Notes: generated by a model not told the origin, from the letters alone. 64,000 bases of DNA from Alphaproteobacteria bacterium (GCA_965279315.1 OZ257145.1:1485536-1549535), one strand, 5' to 3'. Positions 1,019-21,081 are shown, numbered from the stretch's first letter. Translations and numbers: made by a program.

Positions 1019-3034
1019 TCAAACCTTCTTCTTCACCTGCGCCACAATGTCTTCCGCCGTGATGCCGAAGTGTTTGTAGAGTTCCTGATAGGGGGCGCTT
1101 TCGCCGAAGGATTTCATGCCGACGAAGATGCCGTCGCGGCCGATGATGTGGTCCCATCCTTGACGGACGGCGGCTTCGACAGCAACGTTCACCTTCGAAT
1201 TGCCGATCAGCGAGGTCTGGTATTTGGCGTCCTGCTGCGAGAAAAGCTCCAAAGACGGTGCGGAGACGACGCGGGTGGAAATCTTGTCGGCTTCCAGCAT
1301 GTCGCGCGCCTTCATGGCGATTTCGATTTCCGAACCGGTCGCCCAGATGGTGACGACGGGGTCAGACGATCCTTCGGCCAGAATATACGCGCCGCGCTTG
1401 GTCAGGTTTTCATCCGACGCCTCTTTGCGCACCAGCGGCAGGTTCTGGCGTGTCAGCACCAGTACCGACGGGCCGGTCGTGTGCTCCAGCGCGATCTGCC
1501 ATGCTTCCGCCGTTTCAATGACGTCGGCGGGGCGCAGGACGAGCAGGTTGGGGATGCAGCGCAGCGCCGCCAGATGTTCCACCGGCTGGTGCGTCGGGCC
1601 GTCTTCGCCGAGGCCGATCGAGTCATGCGTCATGATGTAAATCACGCGCTGCTTCATCAGCGCCGAGAGGCGGATGGAGGGGCGGCAGTAATCGGTGAAG
1701 CTCAAGAAAGTGCCGCCATAGGGGATCAGGCCCTTGTGCAGCGCCATGCCGTTCATGGCAGCCGCCATGCCGTGCTCGCGCACGCCCCAATAGATGTAAC
1801 GGCCGGAATAATCTTCCTTCGTCACCTTGCCCATGTCTTTCACAAGCGTGAGGACAGAACCGGTCAGGTCGGCAGAACCGCCAACCATTTCGGGCAGCGC
1901 AGGGATCAGCGCTTCCAGCACTTTGCCCGATGCCGCGCGGGTCGCGATCTTCGGCGCTTCGGCCTTCATCTTGGCCTTGAAGGCGGAAATGACGGGCGCA
2001 ACGGTTTTGGTCACATCGCCGCTGATCATGCGGTCGAACAGCGCGCGTTTCTCGCCATCCAGTTTATCAAGGCGCGATTGCCAGTTCTTGCGTTCCATCT
2101 GGTGGGCGCTGCCGGCTGCGCGCCATGCCTCCACCACGTTTTCGGGCAGGTGGAACGGCACATGCGGCCAGTTCAGGTTTTTGCGCGCGCCCACAATCTC
2201 TTCATCGCCGAGCGGCGAGCCGTGGGAGGAGGATTTTCCCTCTTTCGTCGGCGCGCCATAGCCGATTTTCGTCTTGCAGGAAATCAGGCTGGGCTTGTTC
2301 GGGTTCAGCTGCGCGGCGGCGATGGCCTTTGCGATCTGCTCGGGGTTGTGCCCATCGACCGTGAAGGTTTCCCAGCCGTAAGCCTCGAAGCGCTGCGGCG
2401 TGTTGTCGGTGAAGGAGAGGGACGTGGGGCCGTCGATGGAAATTTCGTTGTCATCATACAGCACGATCAGCTTGCCGAGGCCCAGATGGCCGGCGAGCGA
2501 GCAGGCTTCATGGCTGATGCCCTCCATCAAATCGCCGTCGGAGCAGATGACATAGGTGAAATGGTTGAAGATTTCGTTGCCGAAGCGCGCATTCATCATG
2601 CGTTCAGCAAGGGCGAAGCCAACGCCGTTCGAAATGCCCTGTCCCAGCGGGCCGGTGGTGGTTTCGATGCCGGCTTCGGGCATGACTTCGGGGTGGCCGG
2701 GGGTCAGGCTGTGCAGCTGGCGGAAATTCTTGATCTGGTCGAGCGTCATTTTCTCGTAACCCGACAAATGCAGGATCGAGTAGAGCAGCATCGAGCCATG
2801 GCCGGCGGAGAGGATGAAACGGTCGCGGTCGGGCCAGGTGGGGTTCGATGCGTCATGCTTCATGAATTGCGTGAACAGCACGGTTGCCACATCGGCCATG
2901 CCCATCGGCATGCCGGGGTGTCCGGAATTCGCCTTTTGCACCGCATCCATCGACAGGGCGCGGAGTGCGTTCGCAAGGTCGTTATGGCTGGCGGTTGCGG
3001 TGGTTTGGGACTTGGCTGCTTGTGCGGATGACAT
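1019..3034 (-). CDS. tkt: Transketolase
   Basis: 671 aa from MSSAQAAK. N-terminal SGHPGMPMGMADV ThDP-binding region and full-length transketolase-like sequence. AAGGAG lies 10 nt upstream of ATG 3034; the longer start at 3079 has no SD. Confidence 0.95.
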   Translation of the reverse strand: MSSAQAAKSQTTATASHNDLANALRALSMDAVQKANSGHPGMPMGMADVATVLFTQFMKHDASNPTWPDRDRFILSAGHGSMLLYSILHLSGYEKMTLDQIKNFRQLHSLTPGHPEVMPEAGIETTTGPLGQGISNGVGFALAERMMNARFGNEIFNHFTYVICSDGDLMEGISHEACSLAGHLGLGKLIVLYDDNEISIDGPTSLSFTDNTPQRFEAYGWETFTVDGHNPEQIAKAIAAAQLNPNKPSLISCKTKIGYGAPTKEGKSSSHGSPLGDEEIVGARKNLNWPHVPFHLPENVVEAWRAAGSAHQMERKNWQSRLDKLDGEKRALFDRMISGDVTKTVAPVISAFKAKMKAEAPKIATRAASGKVLEALIPALPEMVGGSADLTGSVLTLVKDMGKVTKEDYSGRYIYWGVREHGMAAAMNGMALHKGLIPYGGTFLSFTDYCRPSIRLSALMKQRVIYIMTHDSIGLGEDGPTHQPVEHLAALRCIPNLLVLRPADVIETAEAWQIALEHTTGPSVLVLTRQNLPLVRKEASDENLTKRGAYILAEGSSDPVVTIWATGSEIEIAMKARDMLEADKISTRVVSAPSLELFSQQDAKYQTSLIGNSKVNVAVEAAVRQGWDHIIGRDGIFVGMKSFGESAPYQELYKHFGITAEDIVAQVKKKV

Positions 3035-3157
3035 CGTGCATATGCTCCTTATAAATGCCCCCGCAGAATGCAACATCACCGGGATTCGCGCAACCGCTCA
3101 AAACCGCTGATTTGATGAGGTGTTGTTTTTGATATTGCAGGGTATTTTGAATATCAT

Positions 3158-3186
3158 TTGACATAAAAATTGACGTATTCTATAAC
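3158..3186 (+). promoter_or_regulatory. Sigma70-like promoter candidate (TTGACA-17 nt-TATAAC)
   Basis: TTGACA 3158-3163, 17-nt spacer, TATAAC 3181-3186. It lies ~38 nt upstream of ATG 3224. This argues against the 3170 start of the track ORF. Confidence 0.3.
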
Positions 3187-3223
3187 AGTCCAGCTGTTTA
3201 CAGGATTTACAAAGGAACTCACC

Positions 3224-3571
3224 ATGGTCATGACCCCCAACGGTTTTCTCTATGAACGCGTTGAAACGCTCTTTGTCTCGGCGGAGCACCAGCTCTTTCT
3301 GAGGACGGGGCAGGCGCAATCCCCCGGCGGGCGCCGCGCCTATGTCCACATCACCCCGTTTGATAAAACGGATGCGCTCTCGCGCAAATCCCTGATGGTG
3401 GAGGCAATCCCCCTGCATGACGGTGCGCGGCTGACAATATCGACCGTCGACGGCAACACGGTCATCCATGACGGCTACACGGGCACCAAATCGGTCTTCG
3501 CGCCGGCGGCGCGCGAAGCCGTTGCGCCGCCCCCGAAAAAAACCGCCAACAACCTTAAATTCCGCCTGTAA
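3224..3571 (+). CDS. Hypothetical protein (115 aa)
   Basis: AAAGGAA 6 nt upstream of ATG 3224 (MVMTPNGFLYERVETLF...). No family recognised. Confidence 0.45.
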   Translation: MVMTPNGFLYERVETLFVSAEHQLFLRTGQAQSPGGRRAYVHITPFDKTDALSRKSLMVEAIPLHDGARLTISTVDGNTVIHDGYTGTKSVFAPAAREAVAPPPKKTANNLKFRL

Positions 3572-3623
3572 TTCCGCCTTGAACCGTCTTGCCCCGATGC
3601 CCTTGCGGGCATTATCATGGGGC

Positions 3624-3884
3624 ATGACCGAAAACACGCCCGATTTCCGCAAGATGACGCCGGAGGATTTGCGCCGGAACATCACCGAGCTGAACCACCA
3701 GATCAAGCGCATGAAGCGTTTTAATCCGGATGCGTTCGCCTATGAAATCGAGCAGGCGGAGCAGCTGCGCAAAAAATACAAGATCGTCTGGCGCGCGCGC
3801 CCCGGCCGCGCCTTCCACGATGTCGCCGCGCGCAAGAAAAAGCAGAAAGAAATGAAACGCTATACGCGCGGGCCGCGCAGTTAA
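3624..3884 (+). CDS. Hypothetical small basic protein (86 aa)
   Basis: MTENTPDFRKMTPEDLRRNITELNHQIKRMKRF... Lys/Arg-rich and helical-looking. The upstream part of track ORF 3468..3884 overlaps the previous CDS and looks GC-driven. Confidence 0.4.
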   Translation: MTENTPDFRKMTPEDLRRNITELNHQIKRMKRFNPDAFAYEIEQAEQLRKKYKIVWRARPGRAFHDVAARKKKQKEMKRYTRGPRS

Positions 3885-4801
3885 GCCTTCGCTGTTTTAC
3901 GTGCCGACCATTTCGCCTTCAATCTGGCGAAAGGTTTTTCCAGCACATGCCAGACAGGCACAACGGCAAGGCCGATCAGCAATCCCGCCACCGTCGAAAT
4001 CACGATGGAAACAAGTGTGCCGAGGTCACGCATCGCAAGTTCCGCAGCGGGAATGCCATGCAGCACGATGCCGCCACCGACCGAGAACATGGCTGCGGTG
4101 CCGACGACAGATAATGTCTTCATCAAATACGGCACGCATTTCAGGATGCCGATGCCAAGTTTCTGTACGGACTTCTTCGGCTTCTTGGCAAGGTACATGC
4201 CAAGGTCATCCAGCTTGATGATGCAGCCGACAAGGCCATAGACGAAAACAGTCATGCCGATGCCGACGCCGGTCAGCACGCCCGCCTGTACCATCAGCGT
4301 CTTTTCCTTCACCGCGCCCAATGCGACCGCGACGATTTCGGCGGAAAGAATAAAATCCGTGTTCACGGCTTCGGCGATTTTCTTTTGCTCGACTTCCATC
4401 AATTCTTCGGCACTGCGCTGTCCCGCCTGGCGCACTTCGCCGGCATGTGCCGCATCCTCGACGGTCGGCTTCAGCGCATGAATGACTTTTTCCGCGCCTT
4501 CATAGCACAGGAACGCGCCGCCCAGCATCAGCAGCGGCACGATCGCCCATTCGGCGATAATGCTGAGGATCAGCGCGGCGGGGATCAGGATGCATTTGTT
4601 CTTGAACGAGCCCTTGGCCACGCGCCAGACGATGGGCAGCTCGCGTTTCGGGTCTATGCCGACCAATGCCTGCGCATTCACGGCAAGGTCGTCGCCCGCG
4701 ATGCCGGCGGTTTTCGTGGCCGCAACCTTCGACATTGCCGCGACATCGTCGAGCAGCAGCGTAATGTCGTCGAGCAGCGCCAGCAAACCGCCAAAAGCCA
4801 T
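3881..4801 (-). CDS. DUF808 (YedI-like) inner-membrane protein, paralogue 1
   Basis: 306 aa from MAFGGLLALLDDITLLLDDVAAMSK..GDDLAVNA..KGSFKNKCILIPA..GGAFLCYEGAEK..DFILSAEI..KLDDLG..GTAAMFSVGGGIVLHGIP. GGGAGA precedes ATG 4801. Family assignment is from memory of YedI/DUF808 motifs. Confidence 0.85.
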   Translation of the reverse strand: MAFGGLLALLDDITLLLDDVAAMSKVAATKTAGIAGDDLAVNAQALVGIDPKRELPIVWRVAKGSFKNKCILIPAALILSIIAEWAIVPLLMLGGAFLCYEGAEKVIHALKPTVEDAAHAGEVRQAGQRSAEELMEVEQKKIAEAVNTDFILSAEIVAVALGAVKEKTLMVQAGVLTGVGIGMTVFVYGLVGCIIKLDDLGMYLAKKPKKSVQKLGIGILKCVPYLMKTLSVVGTAAMFSVGGGIVLHGIPAAELAMRDLGTLVSIVISTVAGLLIGLAVVPVWHVLEKPFARLKAKWSARKTAKA

Positions 4802-4865
4802 GTCAGGAATCTCCCTTAATTTTCGGGCATAGATTATCGCATTACCCGCGTGCAGGGAAGCGTTG

Positions 4866-5966
4866 TTACGGCGCGGTTTTCGGCGGTTTTGGCGCGGGAA
4901 CCGGCGCAGGTGCGGGCGTGTTGGCGGCTTCAACCTTGGGTGCCGCCGCCGCATTCAGGTCGGCCTTCACATCCGGCATGTTCGCAAGGGCAGGGGTTGC
5001 GGGCGCTTGTTCGGGCGCAGCGGGCGCGTTGTCATTCGCGGGCGATTTTTTAGCGAACAGTTTTTCGCGCGTGCTGGTGAAAAACGCGCCGAGACGTTCC
5101 AGCGGGCCTTCCAGTTTTTCCATGATCGGGTAAGTCGCAAAACTCGCCGCCAACCCGACCGCACCCATGATGAGATGTTCGGCGACAGGCTGGATCAACG
5201 GCAGCGCGGGCACATGCGCAACGGCGGCGGCCAGCAACGCCGTGCCGCCCGGGATGCCCATCAGCAGCAATTCCCCGCCGACAAGGAACAGCGCGGCAGT
5301 GCCGATCACCGAAATGCCCTTGACCAGTTTCGGCATCGCCTTGCCCAAACCATTCCCGATGCTGCGCGATATTTTGGCGAGCGGCTTGTCGCCCTCGCGT
5401 TTCGCCAGCCATTTTCCGGCGGCTTCAAGATTGATGATGCCGCCGATCACGCCATACAGCACGCCTGTCAGCGCAGCACCCGTGGCCGCCATCACGGCCA
5501 GCTGCGTCAGGATCGGCGCGCCGGCCACGACGCTGAGCGTCAGCACGGTGATTTCCATCGACAGGATCGCATCGACCTTCAGCGCGCCCGCGATTTTTTC
5601 TTTTTCGCTCTCCACATGTTTTTCGCCATGTGCGTGGCCGTGACCGCCATGGCCATGACCCTTGCCGCGCAACTGCTCCATCGCTTCGGCGGTCAGGAAC
5701 GCGCCGCCGACGGCCAGCATCGGCAGGATCGCCCAGGGCGCGGCGAAGCTGACCAGCGTCGCGGCGGGGATCAGCACGGCCTTGTTCAGCAGCGATCCCT
5801 TCATCACCTTCAGAAGGGCAGGGAAATTGCGGCCGGGCGGCAGGTTCAGCAATTGCTTCGCGTTCACCGCCACGTCATCGCCGATGATGCCGACAGCCTT
5901 TGGTACCGCAACGGATGTCAGCTGCGTGGCTTGTGCGACCAATGATGAAAAACTGCCCAAAGGCAT
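4866..5966 (-). CDS. DUF808 (YedI-like) membrane protein, paralogue 2, with a His-rich loop and a Pro/Lys tail
   Basis: 366 aa from MPLGSFSSLV. Same block order as paralogue 1 (GDDVAVNA, KGSLLNKAVLIPA, GGAFLTAEAMEQ, DAILSMEI, GTAALFLVGGELLLMGIP). Carries the insert GKGHGHGGHGHAHGEKH. Confidence 0.8.
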   Translation of the reverse strand: MPLGSFSSLVAQATQLTSVAVPKAVGIIGDDVAVNAKQLLNLPPGRNFPALLKVMKGSLLNKAVLIPAATLVSFAAPWAILPMLAVGGAFLTAEAMEQLRGKGHGHGGHGHAHGEKHVESEKEKIAGALKVDAILSMEITVLTLSVVAGAPILTQLAVMAATGAALTGVLYGVIGGIINLEAAGKWLAKREGDKPLAKISRSIGNGLGKAMPKLVKGISVIGTAALFLVGGELLLMGIPGGTALLAAAVAHVPALPLIQPVAEHLIMGAVGLAASFATYPIMEKLEGPLERLGAFFTSTREKLFAKKSPANDNAPAAPEQAPATPALANMPDVKADLNAAAAPKVEAANTPAPAPVPAPKPPKTAP

Positions 5967-6062
5967 GCTGTTAATCCAATTTTTTAAATATAGGCGGTAC
6001 GGTAATTGCGGGGGGGGGCGAGAGTCAAACAAATAAGCCTTTTTGGCAAATAAGCCTTCCCG

Positions 6063-6099
6063 AAAAAAGGCCGCCGGAGTGGTCGAATTCTCCGGCGGC
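6063..6099 (-). terminator. Rho-independent terminator candidate after DUF808 paralogue 3
   Basis: GCCGCCGGAG / CTCCGGCGGC 10-bp stem (6070-6099), followed on the minus strand by T6 (A-run 6063-6068 on plus). Confidence 0.6.
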
Positions 6100-6120
6100 G
6101 TCATGGTCGTCGTTAAACCT

Positions 6121-7293
6121 TTACTTGCCAAAGTTGTTGTTCAGCATCTTCTCGAAGCCCTTGAACGCAGGAGCAGCCGGTTTGACATCGACCGGCAGGC
6201 CGACTTCTTCTTTCGGCGCGGCGGTGTTTAGTGCGGCTTTCACATCCGGTACGGTTTTCAGTGCGTTTGCAGACGCTTCGGCGACGGGCGCGGGCGCGTT
6301 GTCATTGGTCGGCACGGGATGGCCATAGACCTTGTGCAGCAGGCTCTTGGCAAAACCGCTGACAGGGCCTTTAATTTTTTCGTCAAAGAAGGTCTTCGCA
6401 AGGCCTGCGATATGCATCACAGGTTCTTTCAACACCTTCACCGCCGGGATCGCCAGCACGCCTGCCACGATACCGGTCGCCATCGTCGCCGCTGTCTCGA
6501 TCATGCCGACCAGCATCGGGCTGGTGGTGACAAGATGCGCCAAGCCCGTGACGGCATGTTCAAGGCCGGGTATGCCATGCATCAAAATCCCGCCGCCGAC
6601 CGCGAACATCGCGGCGGTGCCGAGGAATGACAAGCCTTTCATCAGCGGCGGTACGGCCTTGACCAGGCCCGCGCCAAAGCTGCGCTTGAATTTCGCAAAT
6701 GCACTGTCGCCTTCGGATTTCGCGAGCTTCAGCCCGAGGTCATCAAGTTTCACCAACCCGCCGACAAGGCCGTAAATGCCGACCGTCATGCCGACGCCAA
6801 TCGCGGCCAGTGCGCCCAGCTGCGCAAGGAAGGGGGCTGTTGCCATCGCACCCAGCGCGACGACGACGATTTCGGCGGACAGGATGAAATCGGTCTTGAT
6901 CGCGGCGGCAACCTTTTCAGCCTCCAGCGTTTTCGGGTCTTTCTTCGGCGCGTTTTCGTCTGCGTGTTTTTCCTTGTGCAGCATCTTCTCGACGCCTTCA
7001 TAGGCAAGGAACGCACCGCCCACCATCATCAGGGGCGCGATGGCCCAAGGGGCGACGACCGACAGCGCCATCGCGCCCGGGATCAGGTAATAGAACTTGT
7101 TTTTCAGCGAGCCTTTGGCAACGGCCATCACCATCGGGATCTCGCGCTTGGGATCGATGCCCCCGCCGCCGCCCGCCAGCACATGGGCGTTCACTGCCAG
7201 ATCGTCACCGGATATGCCCACTGTTTTACGCGCGGCGATTTTCGTCAGTGCGGCGATATCGTCGAGGAGTGCCAGAAGACCGGTGGCGGCCAT
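6121..7293 (-). CDS. DUF808 (YedI-like) membrane protein, paralogue 3
   Basis: 390 aa, MAATGLLALLDDIAALTKIAARKTVGISGDDLAVNA..KGSLKNKFYYLIPG..GGAFLAYEGVEK..DFILSAEI..KLDDLG..GTAAMFAVGGGILMHGIP. Confidence 0.85.
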   Translation of the reverse strand: MAATGLLALLDDIAALTKIAARKTVGISGDDLAVNAHVLAGGGGGIDPKREIPMVMAVAKGSLKNKFYYLIPGAMALSVVAPWAIAPLMMVGGAFLAYEGVEKMLHKEKHADENAPKKDPKTLEAEKVAAAIKTDFILSAEIVVVALGAMATAPFLAQLGALAAIGVGMTVGIYGLVGGLVKLDDLGLKLAKSEGDSAFAKFKRSFGAGLVKAVPPLMKGLSFLGTAAMFAVGGGILMHGIPGLEHAVTGLAHLVTTSPMLVGMIETAATMATGIVAGVLAIPAVKVLKEPVMHIAGLAKTFFDEKIKGPVSGFAKSLLHKVYGHPVPTNDNAPAPVAEASANALKTVPDVKAALNTAAPKEEVGLPVDVKPAAPAFKGFEKMLNNNFGK

Positions 7294-7432
7294 GATGTCC
7301 CTTCAATGGTTGTTCCAATAGCGAAAATGGTAGGTGATTCTGGTTATGCTGGCAATGGTATTATAATACCCCAAACGATTTCAGGGAGATAGCAGGTCAA
7401 AAGACAGGAAATTGCGTTGTAGACCCGTTTAG

Positions 7433-7461
7433 TTGACATAATTACAATGTGATGGTAAAAC
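7433..7461 (+). promoter_or_regulatory. Sigma70-like promoter candidate (TTGACA-17 nt-TAAAAC)
   Basis: TTGACA 7433-7438, 17-nt spacer, TAAAAC 7456-7461, ~50 nt upstream of ATG 7510. Shares the TTGACATAA core with the 3158 candidate. Confidence 0.3.
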
Positions 7462-7509
7462 TGATGGCAACAAACAACAAAAATCAAAAATTATTCGAGG
7501 GTGTAAAAC

Positions 7510-8004
7510 ATGTTCAACAAGATCCGCAAAGCGGGCGAAGACTTCACGCTGAATGGCCTGACGTCTTTCGTCTCCAAATATCTGTCGAAACCGGAAGCGT
7601 CGACCGAACAAAACAAGGAATTCGCAGGCGTGACCGGCCTTGCGGGCGGCAACCTGCTGCGCGCCGTCGGCATCATCGGCACCGGCATCGCCGTCGTCTC
7701 GCTGCTCGCAACGCCTGTCGGCCTTGCGACGGTGGGCACGCTGGCGCTCGGCACGGCCTTTGGCGCGGCGGGCTTGTTCGGGCAGGGCATGATCGACGGC
7801 GGCGACAAAGCGACGAACCTTGTATCCGGCGCGCGCGAAGTGCGCGGCGAGATTTTCGGCGATGCGCTGGCGGATCTTAAAAGCTGGAGCAACAAAAAGC
7901 TCGGCACAAAATTCGGCCTTGCCGCATCGCGCGACGCGCAAGTGCAGCCCGCCGTACAGCCGGTTGTGACGCAACAGGCCAAACCGCAGAAAAACCAGCC
8001 GTAA
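7510..8004 (+). CDS. Hypothetical membrane protein (164 aa)
   Basis: Gly/Ala-rich hydrophobic core GVTGLAGGNLLRAVGIIGTGIAVVSLLATPVGLATVGTLALGTAFGAAGLFG (about 2 TM). C-terminal Pro/Gln/Lys tail ..QQAKPQKNQP. No family recognised. Confidence 0.55.
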   Translation: MFNKIRKAGEDFTLNGLTSFVSKYLSKPEASTEQNKEFAGVTGLAGGNLLRAVGIIGTGIAVVSLLATPVGLATVGTLALGTAFGAAGLFGQGMIDGGDKATNLVSGAREVRGEIFGDALADLKSWSNKKLGTKFGLAASRDAQVQPAVQPVVTQQAKPQKNQP

Positions 8005-8014
8005 GGGGTTTCCC

Positions 8015-8527
8015 ATGTTAAAACTGACACTGTCGGCAACCGCCGATGATGCCGGCAATATCGGTGCGTCCCGCGTGGTCGAGGCCGATGCCAGCGCCTA
8101 TGGCAACGAGCTGGCCGCGCTGCAGGCGGCGTCAAGGCTGATGGACAAGCAGGGCCTGGATGACTTGCGCGTCACCTATGGCAACGGCGTGGTCAATCTG
8201 TTCAAGGGCGATGACCTGGCGGAAAAGGCGGACGAGCTGTTTGACCGCGCGAGCGCCTTCAGCCTGCGCCAGCTGCCGAGCCTCACCGTGCCCGAACTTG
8301 CGTTCGGCGAACCCGACCGCGCGCGGAACATTCAGGAAGCGGCGCACAGCGCGCTGCGCATCGCACAGAAATTCAACCGCAAGGTTTCCTTCCAGTTCAA
8401 CAGCATCGCCGTTGCGGGCGTGGAGCCGAAAGCCGAAATCACGAAAAAAGATATCGAGGCGGTCGTGGATACCTACAGCAAAGCCTCCAAGGCCTTTTAC
8501 GCAGGACGCGGCGGCTTCAAGGCCTGA
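8015..8527 (+). CDS. Hypothetical protein (170 aa)
   Basis: Starts 11 nt after the previous stop, so probably co-transcribed. Soluble-looking sequence, no family recognised. Its 3' end overlaps the convergent DUF808 paralogue 4 by 31 nt. Confidence 0.5.
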   Translation: MLKLTLSATADDAGNIGASRVVEADASAYGNELAALQAASRLMDKQGLDDLRVTYGNGVVNLFKGDDLAEKADELFDRASAFSLRQLPSLTVPELAFGEPDRARNIQEAAHSALRIAQKFNRKVSFQFNSIAVAGVEPKAEITKKDIEAVVDTYSKASKAFYAGRGGFKA

Positions 8528-9615
8528 ACCGGCGTTGGCGCGGCGGATGCCTGCGGCGCGTTGAGTGCCGCCGCCGCATCGTTCAGCGCGGCTTTCACAT
8601 CGGGCATGGCTTTGAGGGGCATGGCTTTGAAACCGTCATTGGCGGGCACTAGCACGGGCACAGGGCGCAAGGTTGCAATCGCGGCACCCTTCTTCCCCGG
8701 CTTCACTTTACCGGCAGCTTTCTTCACAAACGCCACAGCCGCACGCAGGTAAGGCTTCACGGCCTTGCCAATCGGCTGGGCCGCCACGCCCGCGATCAGC
8801 CCGACGCCGGCATTCAACGCCAGCGATGCCGCGCCCTGCACGAGCGCGTTTGACGACAGGTAGCCAAGCGCCGTTGCGGCAACATGGTCCGCCCCCGGGA
8901 TGCCATGCACCAGCATCGTGCCGCCGACCACGAACATGGCGGCAGAACCCAGCACGCCGATGGCCTTGATCAGCTTCGGCGCGATGCGCACCAGCCCTTC
9001 ACCCGTCTTGCGCATGGCCCTTGAAAAAACGCTGTCGCCCTTTTTCGCGGCCAGTAGGTCGCCCGCGTCATCAATCTTGATGACGGCCGCCACCGTCGCA
9101 TAAACGCCCACCGTCATGGCAAGCGCGGTCGCCGCCAGCGTGCCGAGCTGGATCAGGAAGGGCGCGCCCGCGACCGTCAACAATGAGACCGTTGTGATTT
9201 CGGCAGAGAGCAGCAGGTCGGTGCGGATGGCATGCTTGATATGCTGCTTTTCCCATCCCGCATGGTCTTGCGCATGGGCTTCGTTGGCATTGGGTTTCGG
9301 CGCCTTCATCTTGCGGTGGACGATTTTTTCCATCGCGTCATAGCAGAGCAGCGCGCCGCCCGCCGCGAGCATAGGGACAATCAGTCCCGGCATGGTGAAG
9401 GTGAGGCCGAGCGCGGTTGGGATCAGGATCGCCTTGTTCTTCAACGCGCCCTTGAACACCTGCCAGACCATCGGCAGCTTGCGGTGGCTCTGCCCGCCGA
9501 TCAGCAGGTTGCAGGCAATCGCGGTGTCGTCGCCGACCACGCCGAGCGTCTGCACCGCCGCGCGTTGCGACAATGCGGCGACTTCCCCCAGCTGTGCGGC
9601 GAAAGTGGCCGACAT
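8497..9615 (-). CDS. DUF808 (YedI-like) membrane protein, paralogue 4
   Basis: 372 aa from MSATFAAQLGEVAALSQRAAVQTLGVVGDDTAIACN..KGALKNKAILIPT..GGALLCYDAMEK..DLLLSAEI..KIDDAG..GSAAMFVVGGTMLVHGIP. Confidence 0.8.
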   Translation of the reverse strand: MSATFAAQLGEVAALSQRAAVQTLGVVGDDTAIACNLLIGGQSHRKLPMVWQVFKGALKNKAILIPTALGLTFTMPGLIVPMLAAGGALLCYDAMEKIVHRKMKAPKPNANEAHAQDHAGWEKQHIKHAIRTDLLLSAEITTVSLLTVAGAPFLIQLGTLAATALAMTVGVYATVAAVIKIDDAGDLLAAKKGDSVFSRAMRKTGEGLVRIAPKLIKAIGVLGSAAMFVVGGTMLVHGIPGADHVAATALGYLSSNALVQGAASLALNAGVGLIAGVAAQPIGKAVKPYLRAAVAFVKKAAGKVKPGKKGAAIATLRPVPVLVPANDGFKAMPLKAMPDVKAALNDAAAALNAPQASAAPTPVQALKPPRPA

Positions 9616-9697
9616 ACGCGATGAGCTTTCTGTTGTTGAACGACAGAAAAGATACCCGATGGGGTACAATAATGGAAGTATTATGTAACTTGTTGAT

Positions 9698-10744
9698 TTA
9701 GAAGCGATAACCCAAGGTCACAGTGCCGAAAATTGACGGGTCGTCCTGCTTGTCGAATTCCTTCGTCCGGTACATCAGTGCATAGCTCAAACGTGTATGC
9801 CCGTAGGTAAACGCGATGCCCGCGCTGGCATCGCCGACGAAGAGTTTTTTATCGACGCTGTAGCTGTCGGCAAAGGTATTGCCGTCGAGGAAGATGTTAC
9901 GGGCGACGGCGCGGCCTTCGATGCCGCCGAACAGGTGCCAGCTGAACTGGCCGTCATCGACGATAAACGCGCCGGTGCCGGGCATGGCGGGGCGCACACG
10001 CGCCGGATCATCCTGAAACCGCCCCGAAGACGGGCTGAGGCGAAGCGACAGGCCTGCATTCGTATAAGTATAGATGTTGCCGAGCGTCACGCCGAAATGC
10101 GGCTCGACCCCTGCCGATAGCCCCAGCGGGCCTTCAAACCCGAAACGCTCCGGCCAGCGGCGCTGCCAGCTGAGCATCAAACCCGGCTCGTTCGACAATT
10201 GGTTGTCCCAACCGCGCGGGGTGGGGCTGTCGGATATATGTTCGTGCACGAAACTCTGCACCTGACGGCCCAGCGCTGCGGGACCGACGACGCCAACTGT
10301 CGCCTCCACCTCGTCGATATGGTTGTCGGTCACGCTGACCAGACCGGCGGAGGTGTAGAGGAACGCGGCCCAAGGCCTGTCATTCGGGTCCTGGGTGACG
10401 CGCGTGATGTCTTTGGGCGTATAAAGGTTATGACCGAGCGAATAGTAGATGCTGGTCGTCGGGTTGATCGAGAAAGTGGGGATCAGCCGGTCGATCACGT
10501 CGAAAATCTGCGGCGGGCGCTTGCCAAGGTCGAAATAGCTGATGCGCGCGCCATTCGTATAATTCTGGTCGGTGCCGCCGCCATACAGGTCGTTTTCGGA
10601 ATTGAGCGTAATGAATTTGCGGTCTTTCACATCGACTAGCCGCTGGGCGATCTGCTGCTGTAACGTTTCCTTCTCCTCCTCCGCGCGGGCGGGGGAGGCG
10701 AGCAGCAATGCGGCGAACAGGAATGTATAGATGACCGGTCTCAT
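9698..10744 (-). CDS. Outer-membrane lipid A deacylase LpxR-family (DUF2219-like) protein
   Basis: 348 aa from MRPVIYTFLFAALLLASPARA (signal peptide). SENDLYGGGTDQNYTNGARISY motif, alternating beta-strand-like C-terminus ending in F. Family is recalled, not searched. Confidence 0.6.
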   Translation of the reverse strand: MRPVIYTFLFAALLLASPARAEEEKETLQQQIAQRLVDVKDRKFITLNSENDLYGGGTDQNYTNGARISYFDLGKRPPQIFDVIDRLIPTFSINPTTSIYYSLGHNLYTPKDITRVTQDPNDRPWAAFLYTSAGLVSVTDNHIDEVEATVGVVGPAALGRQVQSFVHEHISDSPTPRGWDNQLSNEPGLMLSWQRRWPERFGFEGPLGLSAGVEPHFGVTLGNIYTYTNAGLSLRLSPSSGRFQDDPARVRPAMPGTGAFIVDDGQFSWHLFGGIEGRAVARNIFLDGNTFADSYSVDKKLFVGDASAGIAFTYGHTRLSYALMYRTKEFDKQDDPSIFGTVTLGYRF

Positions 10745-10809
10745 AACGCATCCTAACATGCGGGCGGGCTTTGGGTTCAACCGGTTCCCAAGAATTCGGG
10801 CAGTGATGC

Positions 10810-10846
10810 AAAAAAACAAGCCGCCCGGGTAAGGGGCGGCTTGTTT
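10810..10846 (-). terminator. Rho-independent terminator after gcvP
   Basis: AAACAAGCCGCCC / GGGCGGCTTGTTT stem, followed on the minus strand by T7, 17 nt after the gcvP stop. Confidence 0.65.
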
Positions 10847-10862
10847 CCGGATAATCAGTCGC

Positions 10863-13745
10863 TTATGCCGCCTCGGAATATGCCTCGATAGGCGGGCAGG
10901 CGCAGACAAGGTTGCGGTCGCCTGCCGCATGGTCGATGCGGTTGACGGGCGGCCAGTATTTATCACCGATCAGGTGCGCCGCCGGGAATGCGCCGTCGTG
11001 GCGGGAATAGGGGCGTTCCCACTTGTCGGCGGTCAGGTCACCCAGCGTATGCGGGGCGAGCTGCAGGGGGTTGTTGCCCTGCGGCCATATGCCTTTTTCG
11101 ACTTTCTCGATTTCCATGCGGATGACGGTCAGTGCCTCGATGAAGCGGTCCAGCTCCGCCTTGCTCTCGGATTCCGTCGGCTCGATCATCAGCGTGCCGG
11201 GGACGGGGAAAGACATGGTGGGCGCGTGGAAGCCGAAATCCATCAGGCGTTTGGCGATATCGTCGACGCTGATATTCGCGGAGGTTTTCAGCGGGCGCGT
11301 GTCGAGAATGCATTCATGCGCCACATAGCCGTTCTTGCCCTTGTAGAGCGTGACGTAATGCTTTTCCAGTTTCTTGGCGATGTAGTTGGCGTTCAGGATC
11401 GCCACCTGCGTTGCGCGCTTCAGCCCTTCCGTGCCCATCAGCGTGATATAAACCCACGAAATCGGCAGGATCGATGCCGAACCGTAGGGCGCAGCGGATA
11501 CAGGGCCAATCGCGTCTTCGCCGCCCACGCCGCCGACCAGCGGATGGCCGGGAAGGAAGGGAGCAAGGTGTTCGCCAACGCCGATCGGGCCCATGCCGGG
11601 ACCGCCGCCGCCATGCGGAATGCAGAAGGTCTTGTGCAGGTTCATGTGCATGACGTCCGCGCCGAACTTGCCGGGGCAGGCGAGGCCGACCAGCGCGTTG
11701 AAATTCGCGCCGTCCATGTAGACCTGTCCGCCGTTGTCGTGGATGATCTTGCAGATTTCGCGGATCTCTTCCTCGAACACGCCATGCGTCGATGGATAGG
11801 TCACCATCAGCGCGGCAAGCTTGTCCTTGTGCTGCTCCGCTTTCGCGCGCAGGTCGGTCAAATCGACGTTGCCATTTTCGTCGCAGGCGGTGATGACGAC
11901 CTCCATACCCGCCATCACGGCAGTTGCGGGGTTGGTGCCATGCGCGGAAGACGGGATCAGGCAGATATTGCGGTGCGACTGGCCTTTCGATTCATGATAG
12001 GCGCGGATGACCAGCAGGCCGGAATATTCGCCTTGGCTACCCGCGTTCGGCTGCAGCGTCACGGCGGCAAAGCCGGTCAGCGTGCAAAGCTTCGCTTCCA
12101 GATCTTTCAGCATCAGTTTGTAACCCTGCGCCTGATCGAGCGGCGCGAAGGGATGCATGTTGCCGAATTCGGGCCAGGTGACGGGGATCATTTCGGCCGT
12201 CGCGTTCAGCTTCATCGTGCAGGACCCGAGCGGGATCATGGAACGGTTGAGCGCGATGTCTTTCTGTTCCAGATGGCGGAGGTAGCGCAGCATTTCGGTT
12301 TCGGAACGGTATTGGTGGAAGGTCGGGTGCTGCAGGTATTCAGATGTGCGTTTCAGCGATTGCGGAATGGCATCCTGCACGCCCGCATCCAGTGCCTCGA
12401 CCGAAAAACCAAGCGCGCCCTTGCCGGAGAATACCTGCCACAGGCGGAAGACCTCATCGCGGGTGGAGCGTTCATCCAGCGACACGCCGATGCGCCCGTC
12501 GCCGAAATCGCGCAGGTTGATTTCCTTTGCCGCCGCGCGGTTCAGGATATCCTGCGCATGGCTGCCGGTATCGACCGTCACGGTGTCAAAGAAGCTGGCA
12601 TTGGTGGAGCTGAAACCAAGCTTGCGCAACCCTTCCGCGAAAATCGCGGCAAGGCGGTGCGTGCGGGTCGCAATCGTTTTCAGGCCTTCGGGGCCGTGAT
12701 ACACGGCATAGAAGGCCGCGATGTTCGCCAGCAGCACCTGCGCCGTGCAGATGTTCGACGTCGCCTTTTCGCGGCGGATATGCTGTTCGCGCGTTTGCAG
12801 GGCCAGCCGATAGGCTGCTTTCCCCTTTGAATCGACCGACACGCCGACGATGCGGCCGGGGATGGAACGTTTATAGGCATCCTGCGCGGCAAAGAATGCG
12901 GCATGGGGGCCGCCGTAACCCAGCGGCACGCCGAAGCGCTGCGCCGATCCGAACACGATATCCGCGCCCCATTCGCCGGGCGGTTTCAGCAGCGTCAACG
13001 CCAGCAGGTCGGTCGCAACGGCAACCGCGATATTTTTTGATTTCGCCTTCGCCGCAAGATCGCCGTAATCAACGACCGCGCCCGATGTGCCGGGATATTG
13101 CAGCAGGATGGCGAAACCGTCTTTTTCAATCAGGTCGCCGGCCTTGCCCACGACAACTTCGATGCCCAGCGGTTTCGCGCGCGTTTCCACAACCGCAATC
13201 GTTTGCGGGTGGCAGTCATCGGCGACAAGGAACACGTTGCTGGTGGACGAACCAACACGTTTCGCAAGCGTCATGGCTTCGGCGGCGGAGGTTGCTTCAT
13301 CCAGCATCGATGCGTTGGCGAGCGGCATGCCCGTCAAATCCATCGTGACCTGCTGGAAATTGATCATCGCTTCCAGCCGGCCTTGGCTGATTTCGGGCTG
13401 GTAAGGCGTATAGGCGGTGTACCAGCCGGGGTTTTGCAGCACGTTGCGCAAAATCACGTTCGGCGTGATGGTGTCGTAATAGCCCGCGCCGATCAGGGAG
13501 CGGTAGACCTTGTTCTGCTTCGCCATGCTTTCCAAAAGCGCCAGCGCATCGTGTTCCGTCATCGGCTCGCCGGTGGCGGGCGCCGATTTTTCGCGGATGG
13601 ATGCGGGCACGGCCTTGTTCGTCAGGTCGTCGAGGCTCGTCGCGCCGACGGTGCGCAGCATCGCGGCGATATCGGATTCAGAAGGCCCGATATGGCGGCG
13701 GATGAAATCGGTGCGTTGTTCAAGGTCCTGTATCGTCTGCGGCAT
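10863..13745 (-). CDS. gcvP: Glycine dehydrogenase (decarboxylating), single-chain P protein
   Basis: 960 aa, full-length GcvP-like sequence (FIRRHIGPS.., [11 protein letters not shown].., [19 protein letters not shown]-Lys region). ATG 13745 is chosen because ATG 13772 would overlap gcvH by 23 nt. Confidence 0.95.
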
Positions 13746-17770: not shown

Positions 17771-18328
17771 TTAAAGCCCCAGCCGCTTCTTGCGCTCGAT
17801 ATACCCGCGCGTGCTTTGGTCGATTTCGTAATCGCCGATCTTGATGACCATGCCGCCGATCAGCGACGGGTCGACCGCGACCTTGGTTTCGCCCGCCACG
17901 ATATTGAACTTGTCCTTGATGCGGCCGATCAGGTGGTCGGATGTGGCCACATCCATGGGGAAGGCGGAGGTGAGGGTGATGTCGACATTGCCCTCCAGCT
18001 CCTTGCGCTGCCGCACATAGGATTCAAACACCCATGGGGCATAAGACAGTTTCTTGCCGTCAATCAGCGCGTCGACGAATTCGCGGAAGATTTCATCGAC
18101 CTCCATCTTGTCATACACCGGTTTCATGACGTCTTTCATGTCGTCCGGCTTCAGGCGCGGGTCGCGCAGGATTTTTTCGAAATCCGGCATTTTGACGATT
18201 TCCGCCAGCAGCTCCAGCTTTTCTTCCCAAACCGCGACAGCCGACATTTCCTGCGCGATTTCCAGCGCGGCCTTGGCGAACAGGCGGCCCAGCTTCGGGG
18301 CGATATCGCGCTTGGGTTTGGGTTCCAT
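17771..18328 (-). CDS. atpH: F-type ATP synthase delta subunit (OSCP) family protein, not adjacent to other atp genes
   Basis: 185 aa. Delta/OSCP layout: N-terminal helical part (LGRLFAKAALEIA..), C-terminal ..NVDITLTSAFPMD..KVAVDPSLIGGMVIKIGDYEIDQSTRGYIERKK. Its ATG overlaps the upstream stop as TAATG. Confidence 0.65.
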   Translation of the reverse strand: MEPKPKRDIAPKLGRLFAKAALEIAQEMSAVAVWEEKLELLAEIVKMPDFEKILRDPRLKPDDMKDVMKPVYDKMEVDEIFREFVDALIDGKKLSYAPWVFESYVRQRKELEGNVDITLTSAFPMDVATSDHLIGRIKDKFNIVAGETKVAVDPSLIGGMVIKIGDYEIDQSTRGYIERKKRLGL

Positions 18329-21081
18329 TATTGATCCTTCTTGAAAACGAAGCGTGAATAGAACCAGCTGAGCGCCAGCAAGCTGAGGCCGAGGCCCATG
18401 AACGAAAACACGCGGTAAAGCCCCGTCAGCTCGTCGACGTCATAGAGGAACACCTTGCCGACCGTCACGATCATGACGCCCAGCGACGCGATGCGCAGCG
18501 CCTTGTTCTGCTTGAGCGTGCCAAGGAACAGCAGGCCCGCGCCCAGCAGAAGCCAGACGGCGGAATAGGTATACACTTCCGCGTTTTCCGTCGCCCCCTC
18601 CATCAGGAAGCGGCCGTGATAGAACTGGCGCACCTGCAGCGTGACGAAGATGAACAAAAGCGTCAGCGACAGCCCGCCCGTCAGGCTGCGCGGCAGCGTC
18701 GCCATGCGCAGGCTGGGCTTTTCCTCCAGCCACAGCCACGCGACCGGCAGCGCATAGGGCAGCCACAGCCAGTTCAGCAGCGGCGTCGCGCCCACATCCT
18801 GCGAGCGGCTCCAGAGCGGGTTGGAAATGAACAGGTCGAAATAGAAGACGCGGAACATCGCCATCGCGAACAGGAACGAGCCCGCCCACAGCAGCGCGCG
18901 GCGGCTGTAAAGCCGTCCGGTGTAAACCACCAGCAGCGCCGCCGCGAAGAAGATGTTCGTGATGATGCCGCGTTCCATGAAGCCGGCCTTGCGGAACAGC
19001 ACATCGCCCGGCACCTTGAACACATGGCGGGCGAGGTAGTAGAGCATCAGCGCGCCCAGCGCCACCATCGTCATTTCAAACAGCTCGACCAGTTTGTCAT
19101 CCCCGCGCAGGCGCAGGAAAAACGCAGCCGCGCCGATCAGCACCATCGGGATGCCCAGCTGGAACACCGGCTGGTCGGCAAGCGGCGGCAGGCCGTGCCA
19201 CGGCGACCATTCGACGCCCGTCAGGCTGTTGGCGGTCACGCTGCCCAGCAGCAGAAGCTGCGGCAGGATCAGCAGCAGGAATACGCCGAACAGGATCGCC
19301 GCGATCCGGCGCAGCGCCTTGATGTCGATCTTCCACGCCACCCAGCACACGGCCAATGTTTCAGCGGCGAAGGCGACCGCCATCCAGTCCTGATGCACCT
19401 CGATCACCAGGGCAATCGATGCAAAAGCGGTGGTCATCAGGCTGAACAGCGCCAGCAGGCGGTCGCGCAGTTTTTCGTCGCCCGCAAAATTGCGGAACAC
19501 GTCGCCCGTCAGCCATGCAAAGCCGAGTGCCAGCAGCACCGCAATCGCCGACCACACATGCAGCACATCGCCGGAAATGATGTTCAGCAGCGGATAGATT
19601 TCCTTGCCGATCGTGGCATAGCCGACCCCGTAGAAACCGAGCGAGGCTGCGGACAGCACGCCCGCCATCGTCAGCGACGGCCAGCGACGCAAGAGCCAGA
19701 ATGTCGGCAGGGTATAAACGATGGCAAGCCCCAGCTCGACCATCGCCATTTCCGCGTCCGCCGTGTGCCGCCACATCAGCAGCATCAGCAGGCTGGTGCC
19801 CAGCGACAGGTATGGCACGTATTTGAACTGCGCGGGACGGAAGAACGCCATGGCGATGCCGCCCAGCGCCAGCAAGCCGAACATGCCCCATTCCAGCAGC
19901 CCGTAATCGCAGCGCATGGTGACAAAAGCCATCAACGCGACGCCGGCTGCGGCTGTGAACACGTTCAGCGTGCCGATGCTCGCGCGGTCCTTGCCGCCGA
20001 GTTTGGTGTCTTCCTGCGCCGACGGCACCATGATGACGCCGCTGACCGCGAGGATGAACAAGCCCATGACCAATCCGTCATCGGCGCTGAAATTCCCGCT
20101 GAAATTCCAGACGAGTATCCAGCCGAATGCCAGCACCGCCATCGGCACCGACAATGCCCACCAGCCCAGTTTGCGGAACGCCGTGAAGAGGCCGGCGACA
20201 AGGCAGAACAAATAGAAGAACAGCATGGGCGCGGACGGATGGTCTGTCGTGATCAGCGCAGGCGTGATGAAGCCGCCCAGCATCCCCAGCACCGCAACCG
20301 GCATGCCATGGCGCACCGACAGCACGACGGCAAGCGCGGTCGTCGCCGCCATGCCGATGAAACCCACCATCGGCGGGAAGAAATGATACATCTGCGTCGC
20401 GGCATAGATGGTCGCATACAGCGCTGCGATGCCCGCACCCGCCAGTGACATCGCAATGCGCGCGCCATCGGCCATGGTCGGGTTTTTCTCGCGGATATAG
20501 CGTGCGCCGCCGATCAGCAATGCTGCGAAGACAAAGCCCAGCACGATGCGGACTTCTTCGGTCAGCAAACCCTGCTCGATCGAATATTTCACAAGGTAGA
20601 AACCGGCCAGCGCGAGCGAGATGCCGCCAATCCAGACGGGCAGGCGTTTGCCGAACTGGAATTCGAAGCCGCTGCCCTGCGTCGATTTATCGGCAGCATC
20701 GGTTTTCTGCTGCCGCACCATGCTGGCGGCGGCGCGCGACTCTTGCTGTTCGGCGCGGATCTTTTCCTGTTCGCGTTCGAACGCGACGCGGATTTCGTCA
20801 GGCGGGGTGTAGGCGGGAATGCCTGCCGTCAGCAGCGACGACGGCGGAATGGCGCTGGCGGGCGGCAGCGGCGATGCGGGCGGAATACCGCCCGGCGTCA
20901 GCGGCATGACCTCGACTGGCGCGGCATCAGCGGTGCTGGAGGCGGTGCTGGAAAGGGGACGGGGCGGCAGGGGCGCGCGGTCGATACGGGTGCGCAGCTC
21001 GGTCACGTTATCTTCAAGGGCGCGGAAACGGCCCCACAGGAAGAACAGGAAGACGACGACGCCAAGTACAACTATTTCCAT
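18328..21081 (-). CDS. Large polytopic membrane protein, DUF2339-like
   Basis: 917 aa. N-terminal TM, then helix (FRALEDNVTELRTRIDR), then a Pro-rich linker, then >20 hydrophobic segments. Architecture is typical of DUF2339 (recalled). Confidence 0.6.
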   Translation of the reverse strand: MEIVVLGVVVFLFFLWGRFRALEDNVTELRTRIDRAPLPPRPLSSTASSTADAAPVEVMPLTPGGIPPASPLPPASAIPPSSLLTAGIPAYTPPDEIRVAFEREQEKIRAEQQESRAAASMVRQQKTDAADKSTQGSGFEFQFGKRLPVWIGGISLALAGFYLVKYSIEQGLLTEEVRIVLGFVFAALLIGGARYIREKNPTMADGARIAMSLAGAGIAALYATIYAATQMYHFFPPMVGFIGMAATTALAVVLSVRHGMPVAVLGMLGGFITPALITTDHPSAPMLFFYLFCLVAGLFTAFRKLGWWALSVPMAVLAFGWILVWNFSGNFSADDGLVMGLFILAVSGVIMVPSAQEDTKLGGKDRASIGTLNVFTAAAGVALMAFVTMRCDYGLLEWGMFGLLALGGIAMAFFRPAQFKYVPYLSLGTSLLMLLMWRHTADAEMAMVELGLAIVYTLPTFWLLRRWPSLTMAGVLSAASLGFYGVGYATIGKEIYPLLNIISGDVLHVWSAIAVLLALGFAWLTGDVFRNFAGDEKLRDRLLALFSLMTTAFASIALVIEVHQDWMAVAFAAETLAVCWVAWKIDIKALRRIAAILFGVFLLLILPQLLLLGSVTANSLTGVEWSPWHGLPPLADQPVFQLGIPMVLIGAAAFFLRLRGDDKLVELFEMTMVALGALMLYYLARHVFKVPGDVLFRKAGFMERGIITNIFFAAALLVVYTGRLYSRRALLWAGSFLFAMAMFRVFYFDLFISNPLWSRSQDVGATPLLNWLWLPYALPVAWLWLEEKPSLRMATLPRSLTGGLSLTLLFIFVTLQVRQFYHGRFLMEGATENAEVYTYSAVWLLLGAGLLFLGTLKQNKALRIASLGVMIVTVGKVFLYDVDELTGLYRVFSFMGLGLSLLALSWFYSRFVFKKDQ

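Follow-up and report, generated by a model that had tools for sequence, protein, structure and literature searches.

A conserved array of four diverged DUF808 paralogues in a Micavibrio-like bacterium

The DNA analysed here is a stretch of 64,000 nucleotides from an alphaproteobacterium (Alphaproteobacteria bacterium, GCA_965279315.1, OZ257145.1:1485536-1549535), referred to below as the window. Four minus-strand genes within it, here called c1 to c4, encode diverged proteins of the DUF808/YedI inner-membrane family, and three of the four carry a shared C-terminal tail. This tailed, four-group tandem expansion is a lineage-specific variant of a known, uncharacterised family, and vertical inheritance at a fixed chromosomal slot is the best explanation for it. 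As to function, we lean somewhat towards a subfunctionalised or accessory set of paralogues, which would differ in substrates, regulation or partners, rather than dosage copies or an obligate complex. The four genes are as follows.

3881-4801, minus strand: c1, 306 amino acids, a short canonical DUF808 protein
4866-5966, minus strand: c2, 366 amino acids, the most derived DUF808 paralogue, with a C-terminal tail
6121-7293, minus strand: c3, 390 amino acids, a conservative DUF808 core with a long tail
8497-9615, minus strand: c4, 372 amino acids, a derived DUF808 paralogue with a tail

Family membership and divergence of the copies

A first-pass annotation of this stretch had reported four minus-strand genes of these lengths, with gaps of 64 and 154 nt. 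The open reading frames (ORFs), lengths and gaps (4802-4865 between c1 and c2, 5967-6120 between c2 and c3) were correct. All four frames are intact, and a 3.3 Mb public contig already carries gene calls for identical proteins with identical starts. The description of the genes as lying side by side had to be given up, as the 1,203 nt between c3 and c4 hold two plus-strand genes, orfA and orfB. The annotation was also silent on the C-terminal tail, which is common to c2, c3 and c4 and absent from c1. In a low-coverage public assembly of the same organism (L013 1-711; ENA contig ctg12975, 1.96x coverage), c3 is called as two genes of 287 and 74 amino acids; this split most likely reflects a frameshift error in the assembly rather than true pseudogenisation.

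All four proteins matched the Pfam DUF808 model (PF05661) end to end, with scores of 328.4 bits for c1 (E 4.9e-98), 196.7 for c2 (6.1e-58), 287.2 for c3 (1.7e-85) and 230.6 for c4 (2.9e-68). These scores are far above the gathering score of 28.4 bits, so that a chance match is excluded, and the DUF808/YedI-type identity first proposed for the genes was confirmed. The proteins share this model with the E. coli inner-membrane protein YedI (PF05661 DUF808, PRK10062, COG2354). None of them reached the 475-bit cut-off of the E. coli YedI equivalog model (NCBIfam NF007476 / PRK10062), the scores being 309.7 bits for c1, 147.8 for c2, 240.7 for c3 and 189.5 for c4. Thus c1 to c4 are members of the DUF808 family and not orthologues or equivalents of YedI. 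The family is widespread, a homologue search having given 7,781 scored matches among 8,000 candidates.

NCBI names these proteins only 'DUF808 family protein', and JGI/IMG labels many of the homologues 'predicted DNA repair protein MutK'. The label would make the four genes DNA repair genes, a reading to which we give hardly any credence: the proteins are predicted to be polytopic, hydrophobic and of membrane type, they have no nucleic-acid-related domain, and none of the listed literature matches for 'MutK' deals with the DUF808 family. The origin of the label could not be traced.

Pairwise amino-acid identity between the copies is 35-51%, a slightly narrower range than the ~35-55% first estimated by eye, and c1 and c3 are the nearest pair at about 50%. 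Even in the best-conserved blocks the DNA of the copies is only 60-76% identical, which rules out recent amplification or gene conversion. The first proposal of an old duplication series was borne out by this level of divergence and by the age of the four orthologue groups described below, which are older than the split between genomes that share only 79-92% transketolase identity.

Divergence is unevenly distributed among the copies. The yardstick was a set of 128 alignment columns with at least 90% conservation among 72 short-form homologues: deviations from these number 24 in c1, 25 in c3, 48 in c4 and 57 in c2, and c1 and c3 retain about 80% of the near-invariant DUF808 positions. These two proteins hold the motifs GDD-x-A-x-N, KGS-xx-NK, GG-xx-L-x-YEG-x-EK, D-x3-S-x-EI, KLDD-x-G and GTAAMF-x-VGGG-xxx-HG-x-P, c3 with one additional residue within KGSxxNKxxLIP. 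In addition, c1 keeps the N-terminal double LLDD repeat, and its length (~305 amino acids) is that of typical single-copy members.

The ordered motif blocks that had been described as common to all four copies therefore hold for c1 and c3, while several fail in c2 and one is altered in c4. In c2, NLEAAG stands in place of K(L/I)DDxG (KLDD to NLEA), LTAEAMEQ in place of Y(E/D)xxEK (Y to A), and M in place of the H of HGIP (LMGIP); H106G and H239M are among its deviations at family-conserved columns. In c4, AIAC replaces A(V/I)N (N to A), and W to G and E to D changes are found. None of the four copies has lost the GDD and D-x3-S-x-EI motifs or the Gly-rich helices. Both c2 and c4 thus substitute residues that are otherwise invariant in the family.

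The array in related genomes and selection on its copies

We compared the window with related loci (L001, L002, L003, L005/L006, L007, L008, L009 and L010) and with two loci outside the lineage, L011 and L012. The array occupies a conserved slot. On one side of it lie gcvT-gcvH-gcvP-lpxR, and the opposite side has a small conserved gene followed by tkt and gap. Wherever this slot could be read, in eight independent loci of related (Micavibrio-like) bacteria, it holds two to four DUF808 genes. The numbers of copies are given below.

Window, L001, L002 and L005/L006: four DUF808 copies in the slot
L007: three copies in the slot
L003 (Micavibrio sp.), L009 and L010: two copies in the slot
L008: at least one copy in the slot, where the contig ends
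L011 and L012, outside the lineage: one copy

The first-pass annotation had held that multi-copy arrays, if routine in this lineage, would speak against its reading. Taken literally they are routine, with two to four copies in every related locus sampled; to us this shows that the array is conserved and does not count against it.

A neighbour-joining tree, built without bootstrap, resolved the paralogues into four orthologue groups of c1, c2, c3 and c4 type. The c3-type group is present in every related locus. The c1-type group is found in seven of the eight independent related loci where the slot is readable (the window, L001, L002, L003, L005, L007 and L009), and in these seven it co-occurs with the c3 type. 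The c4-type group was recovered from the window, L001, L005, L007 and L010, and is missing from L003 and L009. The c2-type group is confined to genomes with four copies and is missing from L003, L007, L009 and L010. L010 has c4 and c3 without an adjacent c1.

Near genomic relatives are few: among 185,579 species representatives only two metagenome-assembled genomes (MAGs), 'bacterium D1-2020 MAG006' and 'Bdellovibrionales bacterium', were found, and the tailed homologues farther off belong to MAGs named 'Micavibrio sp.' and 'Alphaproteobacteria bacterium'. NCBI taxonomy files Micavibrio under Bdellovibrionales. In GTDB it belongs to Micavibrionales, an order of the Alphaproteobacteria.

All four genes are under purifying selection. 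The ratio of nonsynonymous to synonymous substitution rates (dN/dS) between the window and L001 was 0.078 for c1, 0.080 for c2, 0.069 for c3 and 0.140 for c4, with 0.045 for tkt and 0.059 for gcvP as reference genes. The fastest-evolving copy is c4, which is also only 67% identical in L002 over the part that is present there. Within the orthologue groups the deviant residues are for the most part fixed, across genomes that are only 55-70% identical. KLDD to NLEA, H106G and H239M are fixed in the c2 orthologues, GRNFP, LTAEAMEQLRG and VGGELLL are largely fixed there, and A-(I/V)-(A/S)-C-N, YD(A/S)M, R-K-(L/I)-P and VGGT are largely fixed in c4 across L001, L005, L007 and L010. Fixation by group together with purifying selection indicates functional divergence under constraint.

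These results bear on whether the copies are redundant and kept for dosage, or whether c2 and c4 are duplication remnants in decay, with no distinct function. The loss of several family-invariant residues from c2 and c4, and the rapid evolution of c4, would fit decay. Intact reading frames in all four genes, dN/dS far below 1 and the conservation of the deviant residues within groups are contrary to it, and copies of 35-51% identity are too diverged for dosage. We consider this explanation very improbable.

The four constrained groups form a natural experiment on the family. They show that replacement is tolerated at some 'invariant' residues (KLDD, H106, H239, N35 and W83) and not at others (GDD, D135/S139/E141, GG and the G-rich helix), and may guide mutagenesis of YedI. 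Public MAGs already carry the genes under the name 'DUF808 family protein', and an ordinary gene-family expansion reveals no mechanism by itself. Like other lineage-specific tandem expansions of membrane proteins, this one combines old duplicates, a syntenic slot, variable copy number and asymmetric divergence with purifying selection on all copies. It differs from them in that the family is one without an assigned function, in that the expansion is tied to the gain of a common disordered tail, and in that two unrelated orphan genes are embedded in it. It differs from YedI and typical DUF808 genes in having four paralogues at one locus, both of the outside loci sampled holding a single gene.

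C-terminal tails and transcription units

The second difference from the DUF808 family at large is a homologous C-terminal extension of about 60-90 amino acids in c2, c3 and c4. Its motifs are, in order, N-D-N-A-P, AL-x-x-(M/V)-PDVKA-x-LN-x-AA and a Pro/Ala-rich end. The end is KPPKTAP in c2 and KPPRPA in c4, and the c3 type has F-xx-FE-xx-L-xx-NFGK. The NDN, PDVKAALN and KPPxxAP motifs set these proteins apart from the rest of the family.

4869-5036, minus strand: c2 tail, with NDNAP (5025-5036), ALANMPDVKADLNAAA (4944-4976) and the Pro/Ala-rich end KPPKTAP
6124-6321, minus strand: c3 tail, with NDNAP, ALKTVPDVKAALNTAA (motif at 6217-6249) and terminal FKGFEKMLNNNFGK
8500-8616, minus strand: c4 tail, with LKAMPDVKAALNDAAA (8572-8604) and the end KPPRPA

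The three tails are also homologous as DNA (repeat families D4 and D5, 65-75% identity), and so go back to one tailed ancestor. The motifs of the c3 tail are conserved among long-form homologues. Among the 120 homologues listed, the long form is restricted to the closest 47 and a few scattered cases, and where tailed homologues are labelled they are Micavibrio or alphaproteobacterial MAGs. With residues 300-390 of c3 as query, phmmer returned a single fragment from 1.84 billion representative proteins. The tail is therefore a low-complexity segment that evolves fast, is restricted to the lineage and carries short linear motifs, and a known or portable domain was ruled out by the same result. 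An AlphaFold2 (AF2) model of the c3 tail has two short helices at the motifs, 351-358 and 376-388, forming a block with a predicted local distance difference test score (pLDDT) of about 75, and is of low confidence elsewhere. The motifs are candidate interaction sites, and the obvious guess is that the tail binds a lineage-specific partner.

The arrangement of the genes was examined together with the following features.

6063-6099, minus strand: intrinsic terminator 3' of c3, GCCGCCGGAG-N10-CTCCGGCGGC followed by TTTTTT
7294-7509, no strand: divergent intergenic region between c3 and orfA, 216 nt
7510-8004, plus strand: orfA, 164 amino acids, a lineage-restricted protein encoded between c3 and c4
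8015-8527, plus strand: orfB, 170 amino acids, a lineage-restricted soluble protein, 10 nt 3' of orfA

The terminator after the third paralogue had been placed exactly by the first-pass annotation. It has a 10-bp G+C stem followed by T6, a fold of -23.6 kcal/mol and a z of -2.2, and both the hairpin and the T-run are conserved in L001 and L002. A consensus scan did not pick it up because its loop is longer than 8 nt. The start of c2 lies 97 nt past this terminator. The next gene, c1, lies 64 nt 3' of c2 with no terminator between them, and co-transcription of c2 and c1 is plausible. There is a strong ribosome-binding site for c1 (AAGGGAG, 7 nt 5' of the start) and a good one for c3 (GAAGGGA, 5' of the gene). 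On the other side, 82 nt separate c4 from the upstream gene lpxR; c4 is convergent with orfB, the 3' ends overlapping by 31 nt, and c3 and orfA diverge from a shared promoter region, 7294-7509. This region has a sigma-70-like candidate site on each strand, TTGCCA-17-TACCAT at 7355-7327 (minus) and TAGACC-17-TACAAT at 7420-7448 (plus), both of them consensus matches only.

The c3 terminator, the divergent orfA and the convergent orfB argue for at least three predicted transcription units: c4, perhaps with lpxR; c3, which ends in a terminator of its own; and c2-c1. The partly independent expression suggested by the first-pass annotation is thus upheld as a prediction from sequence.

The start of c2 is preceded by a segment (5967-6062, minus strand) that is conserved in the window, L001, L002 and L005, with TTTGAC and, after it, TACCGTACCGCCTATATTTAAAAAATTGGATTAAC; in the window it also has a local duplication of AGGCTTATTTG. 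The segment may serve c2-c1 as promoter or operator. Its spacing is unlike that of a standard sigma-70 promoter. A search for a motif shared upstream of the four copies gave nothing convincing in the four promoter regions.

The paralogues might be subunits of a single hetero-oligomeric membrane complex, which could for example have a conservative core of c1 and c3 with derived accessory or regulatory subunits in c2 and c4, the tails serving for assembly. The DUF808 genes are clustered on one strand in conserved order, c1- and c3-type genes occur together in most readable related loci, and the loss of family-invariant residues from c2 and c4 under continued purifying selection is a pattern seen in degenerate heteromer subunits. 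The short conserved motifs common to the three tails are compatible with it as well. Contrary to this, copy number varies from two to four among relatives, c2 and c4 are each dispensed with in some of them, and L010 has no c1 beside its c3. At least three transcription units are predicted for the array, c3 being followed by a strong and conserved terminator. Outside the lineage a single copy is apparently normal (L011 and L012), so that the family works without paralogous partners. These points weigh against an obligate four-part complex. We regard a heteromer in general as doubtful; it could take the form of a c1-c3 pair or have optional accessory subunits.

The first-pass annotation had offered a hetero-oligomer or a subfunctionalised set. 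Variable copy number, separate transcription units and group-specific fixed substitutions incline us to the second of these. On this reading, serial old duplications produced the four orthologue groups in a Micavibrio-like bacterium, in the slot between gcvTHP-lpxR and tkt-gap. The ancestral-like short form would be c1; c3 would have kept its core conservative and acquired a disordered tail, which is probably cytoplasmic and contains short conserved motifs; and c2 and c4 would derive from the tailed form, with fixed group-specific replacements at otherwise invariant positions. Purifying selection maintains all four copies, and at least three units would express them.

Predicted structure, possible activity and neighbouring genes

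The AF2 model of c3 (mean pLDDT 83, predicted template-modelling score 0.69) is all-helical, with unusually long helices. Hydropathy gave five to six hydrophobic helices arranged as three hairpins (approximately residues 67-98, 134-183 and 220-289), each flanked by Lys-rich segments and all of them preceded by an amphipathic N-terminal helix. By the positive-inside rule both termini would lie in the cytoplasm, where the tails are thus probably found, and the conserved acidic residues would be gathered on that side of the membrane.

Similarity to two transporter families was detected below threshold. Residues 79-167 of c3 match positions 52-141 of the TerC model (E 5e-4), and residues 73-126 match LysE (E 5e-3). 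Among 121 family members, 25 gave matches to TerC (PF03741; best E 7e-6) and 17 to LysE (PF01810; best 1.3e-5). Proteins of the TerC/LysE superfamily (Mn2+/Ca2+ and amino-acid exporters) are, as is predicted for DUF808 proteins, small and all-helical with about six hydrophobic helices, and DUF808 proteins are likewise predicted to have membrane-embedded or interfacial acidic residues. The DUF808 D-x3-S-x-E motif may resemble the TerC motif E-xx-LS-x-DN. On this basis the proteins may carry out TerC/LysE-like transport of a small cation or solute, a guess that we prefer to others and hold to be possible but not probable; a place for DUF808 in the superfamily is unproven. Each protein would then have six helices in three hairpins with the N and C termini inside, and an acidic cluster (LLDD, GDD, E99/E102, D135/E141 and KLDD) at the cytoplasmic face of the membrane, distantly like that of TerC/LysE, through which a small cation or solute might be channelled or transported.

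A number of results weigh against a subfunctionalised set of such transporters. The topology comes from hydropathy and the positive-inside rule only, and in none of the 121 family members does the similarity to TerC or LysE attain the gathering score. For the LysE superfamily an internal duplication of a three-helix unit has been proposed. When the N-terminal, middle and C-terminal thirds of the 121-sequence alignment were compared with hhalign, the test for internal repeats was negative (probabilities of 0.6%, 2.3% and 0.7%), a lone probability of 16% being a trivial overlap of alignment slices. Foldseek returned no solved structure with E below 0.1 or a template-modelling (TM) score above 0.21, and a profile search of PDB sequences for DUF808 relatives returned nothing. 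DUF808 thus differs from TerC/LysE in having no detected internal duplication and no significant structural match to a solved transporter. An Rfam scan of 3000-11000 was negative, with no riboswitch, of the yybP-ykoY type or other, upstream of any copy. Literature searches for DUF808, YedI, PF05661 and COG2354 yielded no functional study, in agreement with the first-pass statement that the family has no assigned function. As regards the copies themselves, the co-location and co-occurrence of c1 and c3 in seven of eight loci fit a c1-c3 complex equally well, and the grouping of c2 with c4 in the neighbour-joining tree may be long-branch attraction.

In the literature found, E. coli yedI appears in gene lists only; one of these gives genes controlled by RpoS in strain EDL933 (PMC2907692).

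The two genes embedded between c3 and c4 had no match in Pfam, NCBIfam, PHROG or PADLOC. Their conservation in L001 and L002 (83-88% identity for orfA, 85-95% for orfB) and their dN/dS against L001 (0.14 and 0.26 respectively) indicate that both are real genes. The orfA product has a Gly/Ala-rich hydrophobic core at residues 47-90. Only 10 homologues of orfA were found in 5.8 billion clusters, all from close relatives. Its distant homologues L005_178 (51%) and L008_192 (29%) lie on the opposite strand directly 5' of a c3-type gene, which hints at a linked function of orfA and c3-type DUF808 proteins. For orfB nine homologues were found, in addition to L010_169 at 50%, which is sited upstream of the c4-type gene in L010. 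The AF2 model of the orfB product (pLDDT 77) has the order strand-helix-strand-strand-helix twice, which is that of a CBS pair. CBS-pair proteins dominate the list of its Foldseek matches in the PDB, all of them non-significant (E at least 0.024, TM about 0.2). A CBS-pair identity of orfB is hinted at by these matches only; the sequence gives it no support, there being no Pfam CBS match. PADLOC and PHROG scans of all genes of the array were negative, giving no link to a defence system or phage.

These genes might conceivably act with the tailed paralogues. In such a scheme c2, c3 and c4 would form a regulated hetero-oligomeric ion or solute channel with orfA, as a small membrane protein, and orfB, as a CBS-pair-like nucleotide sensor; the tail motifs PDVKAALN and KPPxxAP would be docking sites, and the whole an adaptation of Micavibrio-type epibiotic predators. 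We think this quite improbable; if true, it would provide the first functional handle on the DUF808/YedI family.

The place of c4, orfB and orfA is taken in L003 (8597-9838, plus strand; Micavibrio sp. GCA_028283745) by a gene for a 413-amino-acid protein. This protein was considered as a diverged DUF808 member and rejected, its only matches being weak ones to GNAT acetyltransferases (E 2e-3). The stretch from lpxR to the c3-type gene is thus a variable insertion site. Other small secreted or coiled-coil ORFs are found in this stretch in L007 and L010.

At the other end of the array, the small conserved gene (approximately 3624-3884, plus strand, with the ORF open from 3468) encodes about 86-102 amino acids with the motifs PDFRKMTPEDL and YKIVWRARPGRAFHDVAAR, and its stop codon overlaps that of c1. 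No family in Pfam, NCBIfam, PHROGs or PADLOC matched it. In each of the six related loci that include this flank (L001, L002, L003, L005, L007 and L010) a homologue comes after the DUF808 array; in L010 there are three in tandem, and some of these have a hydrophobic segment inserted. Large proteins with Cadherin_3/Cadherin_4 repeats are encoded 3' of tkt-gap in L005 (16566-18912) and L007 (17507-20596). Elsewhere in the window, an ORF of 917 amino acids with about 20 hydrophobic segments lies at 18328-21081 on the minus strand.

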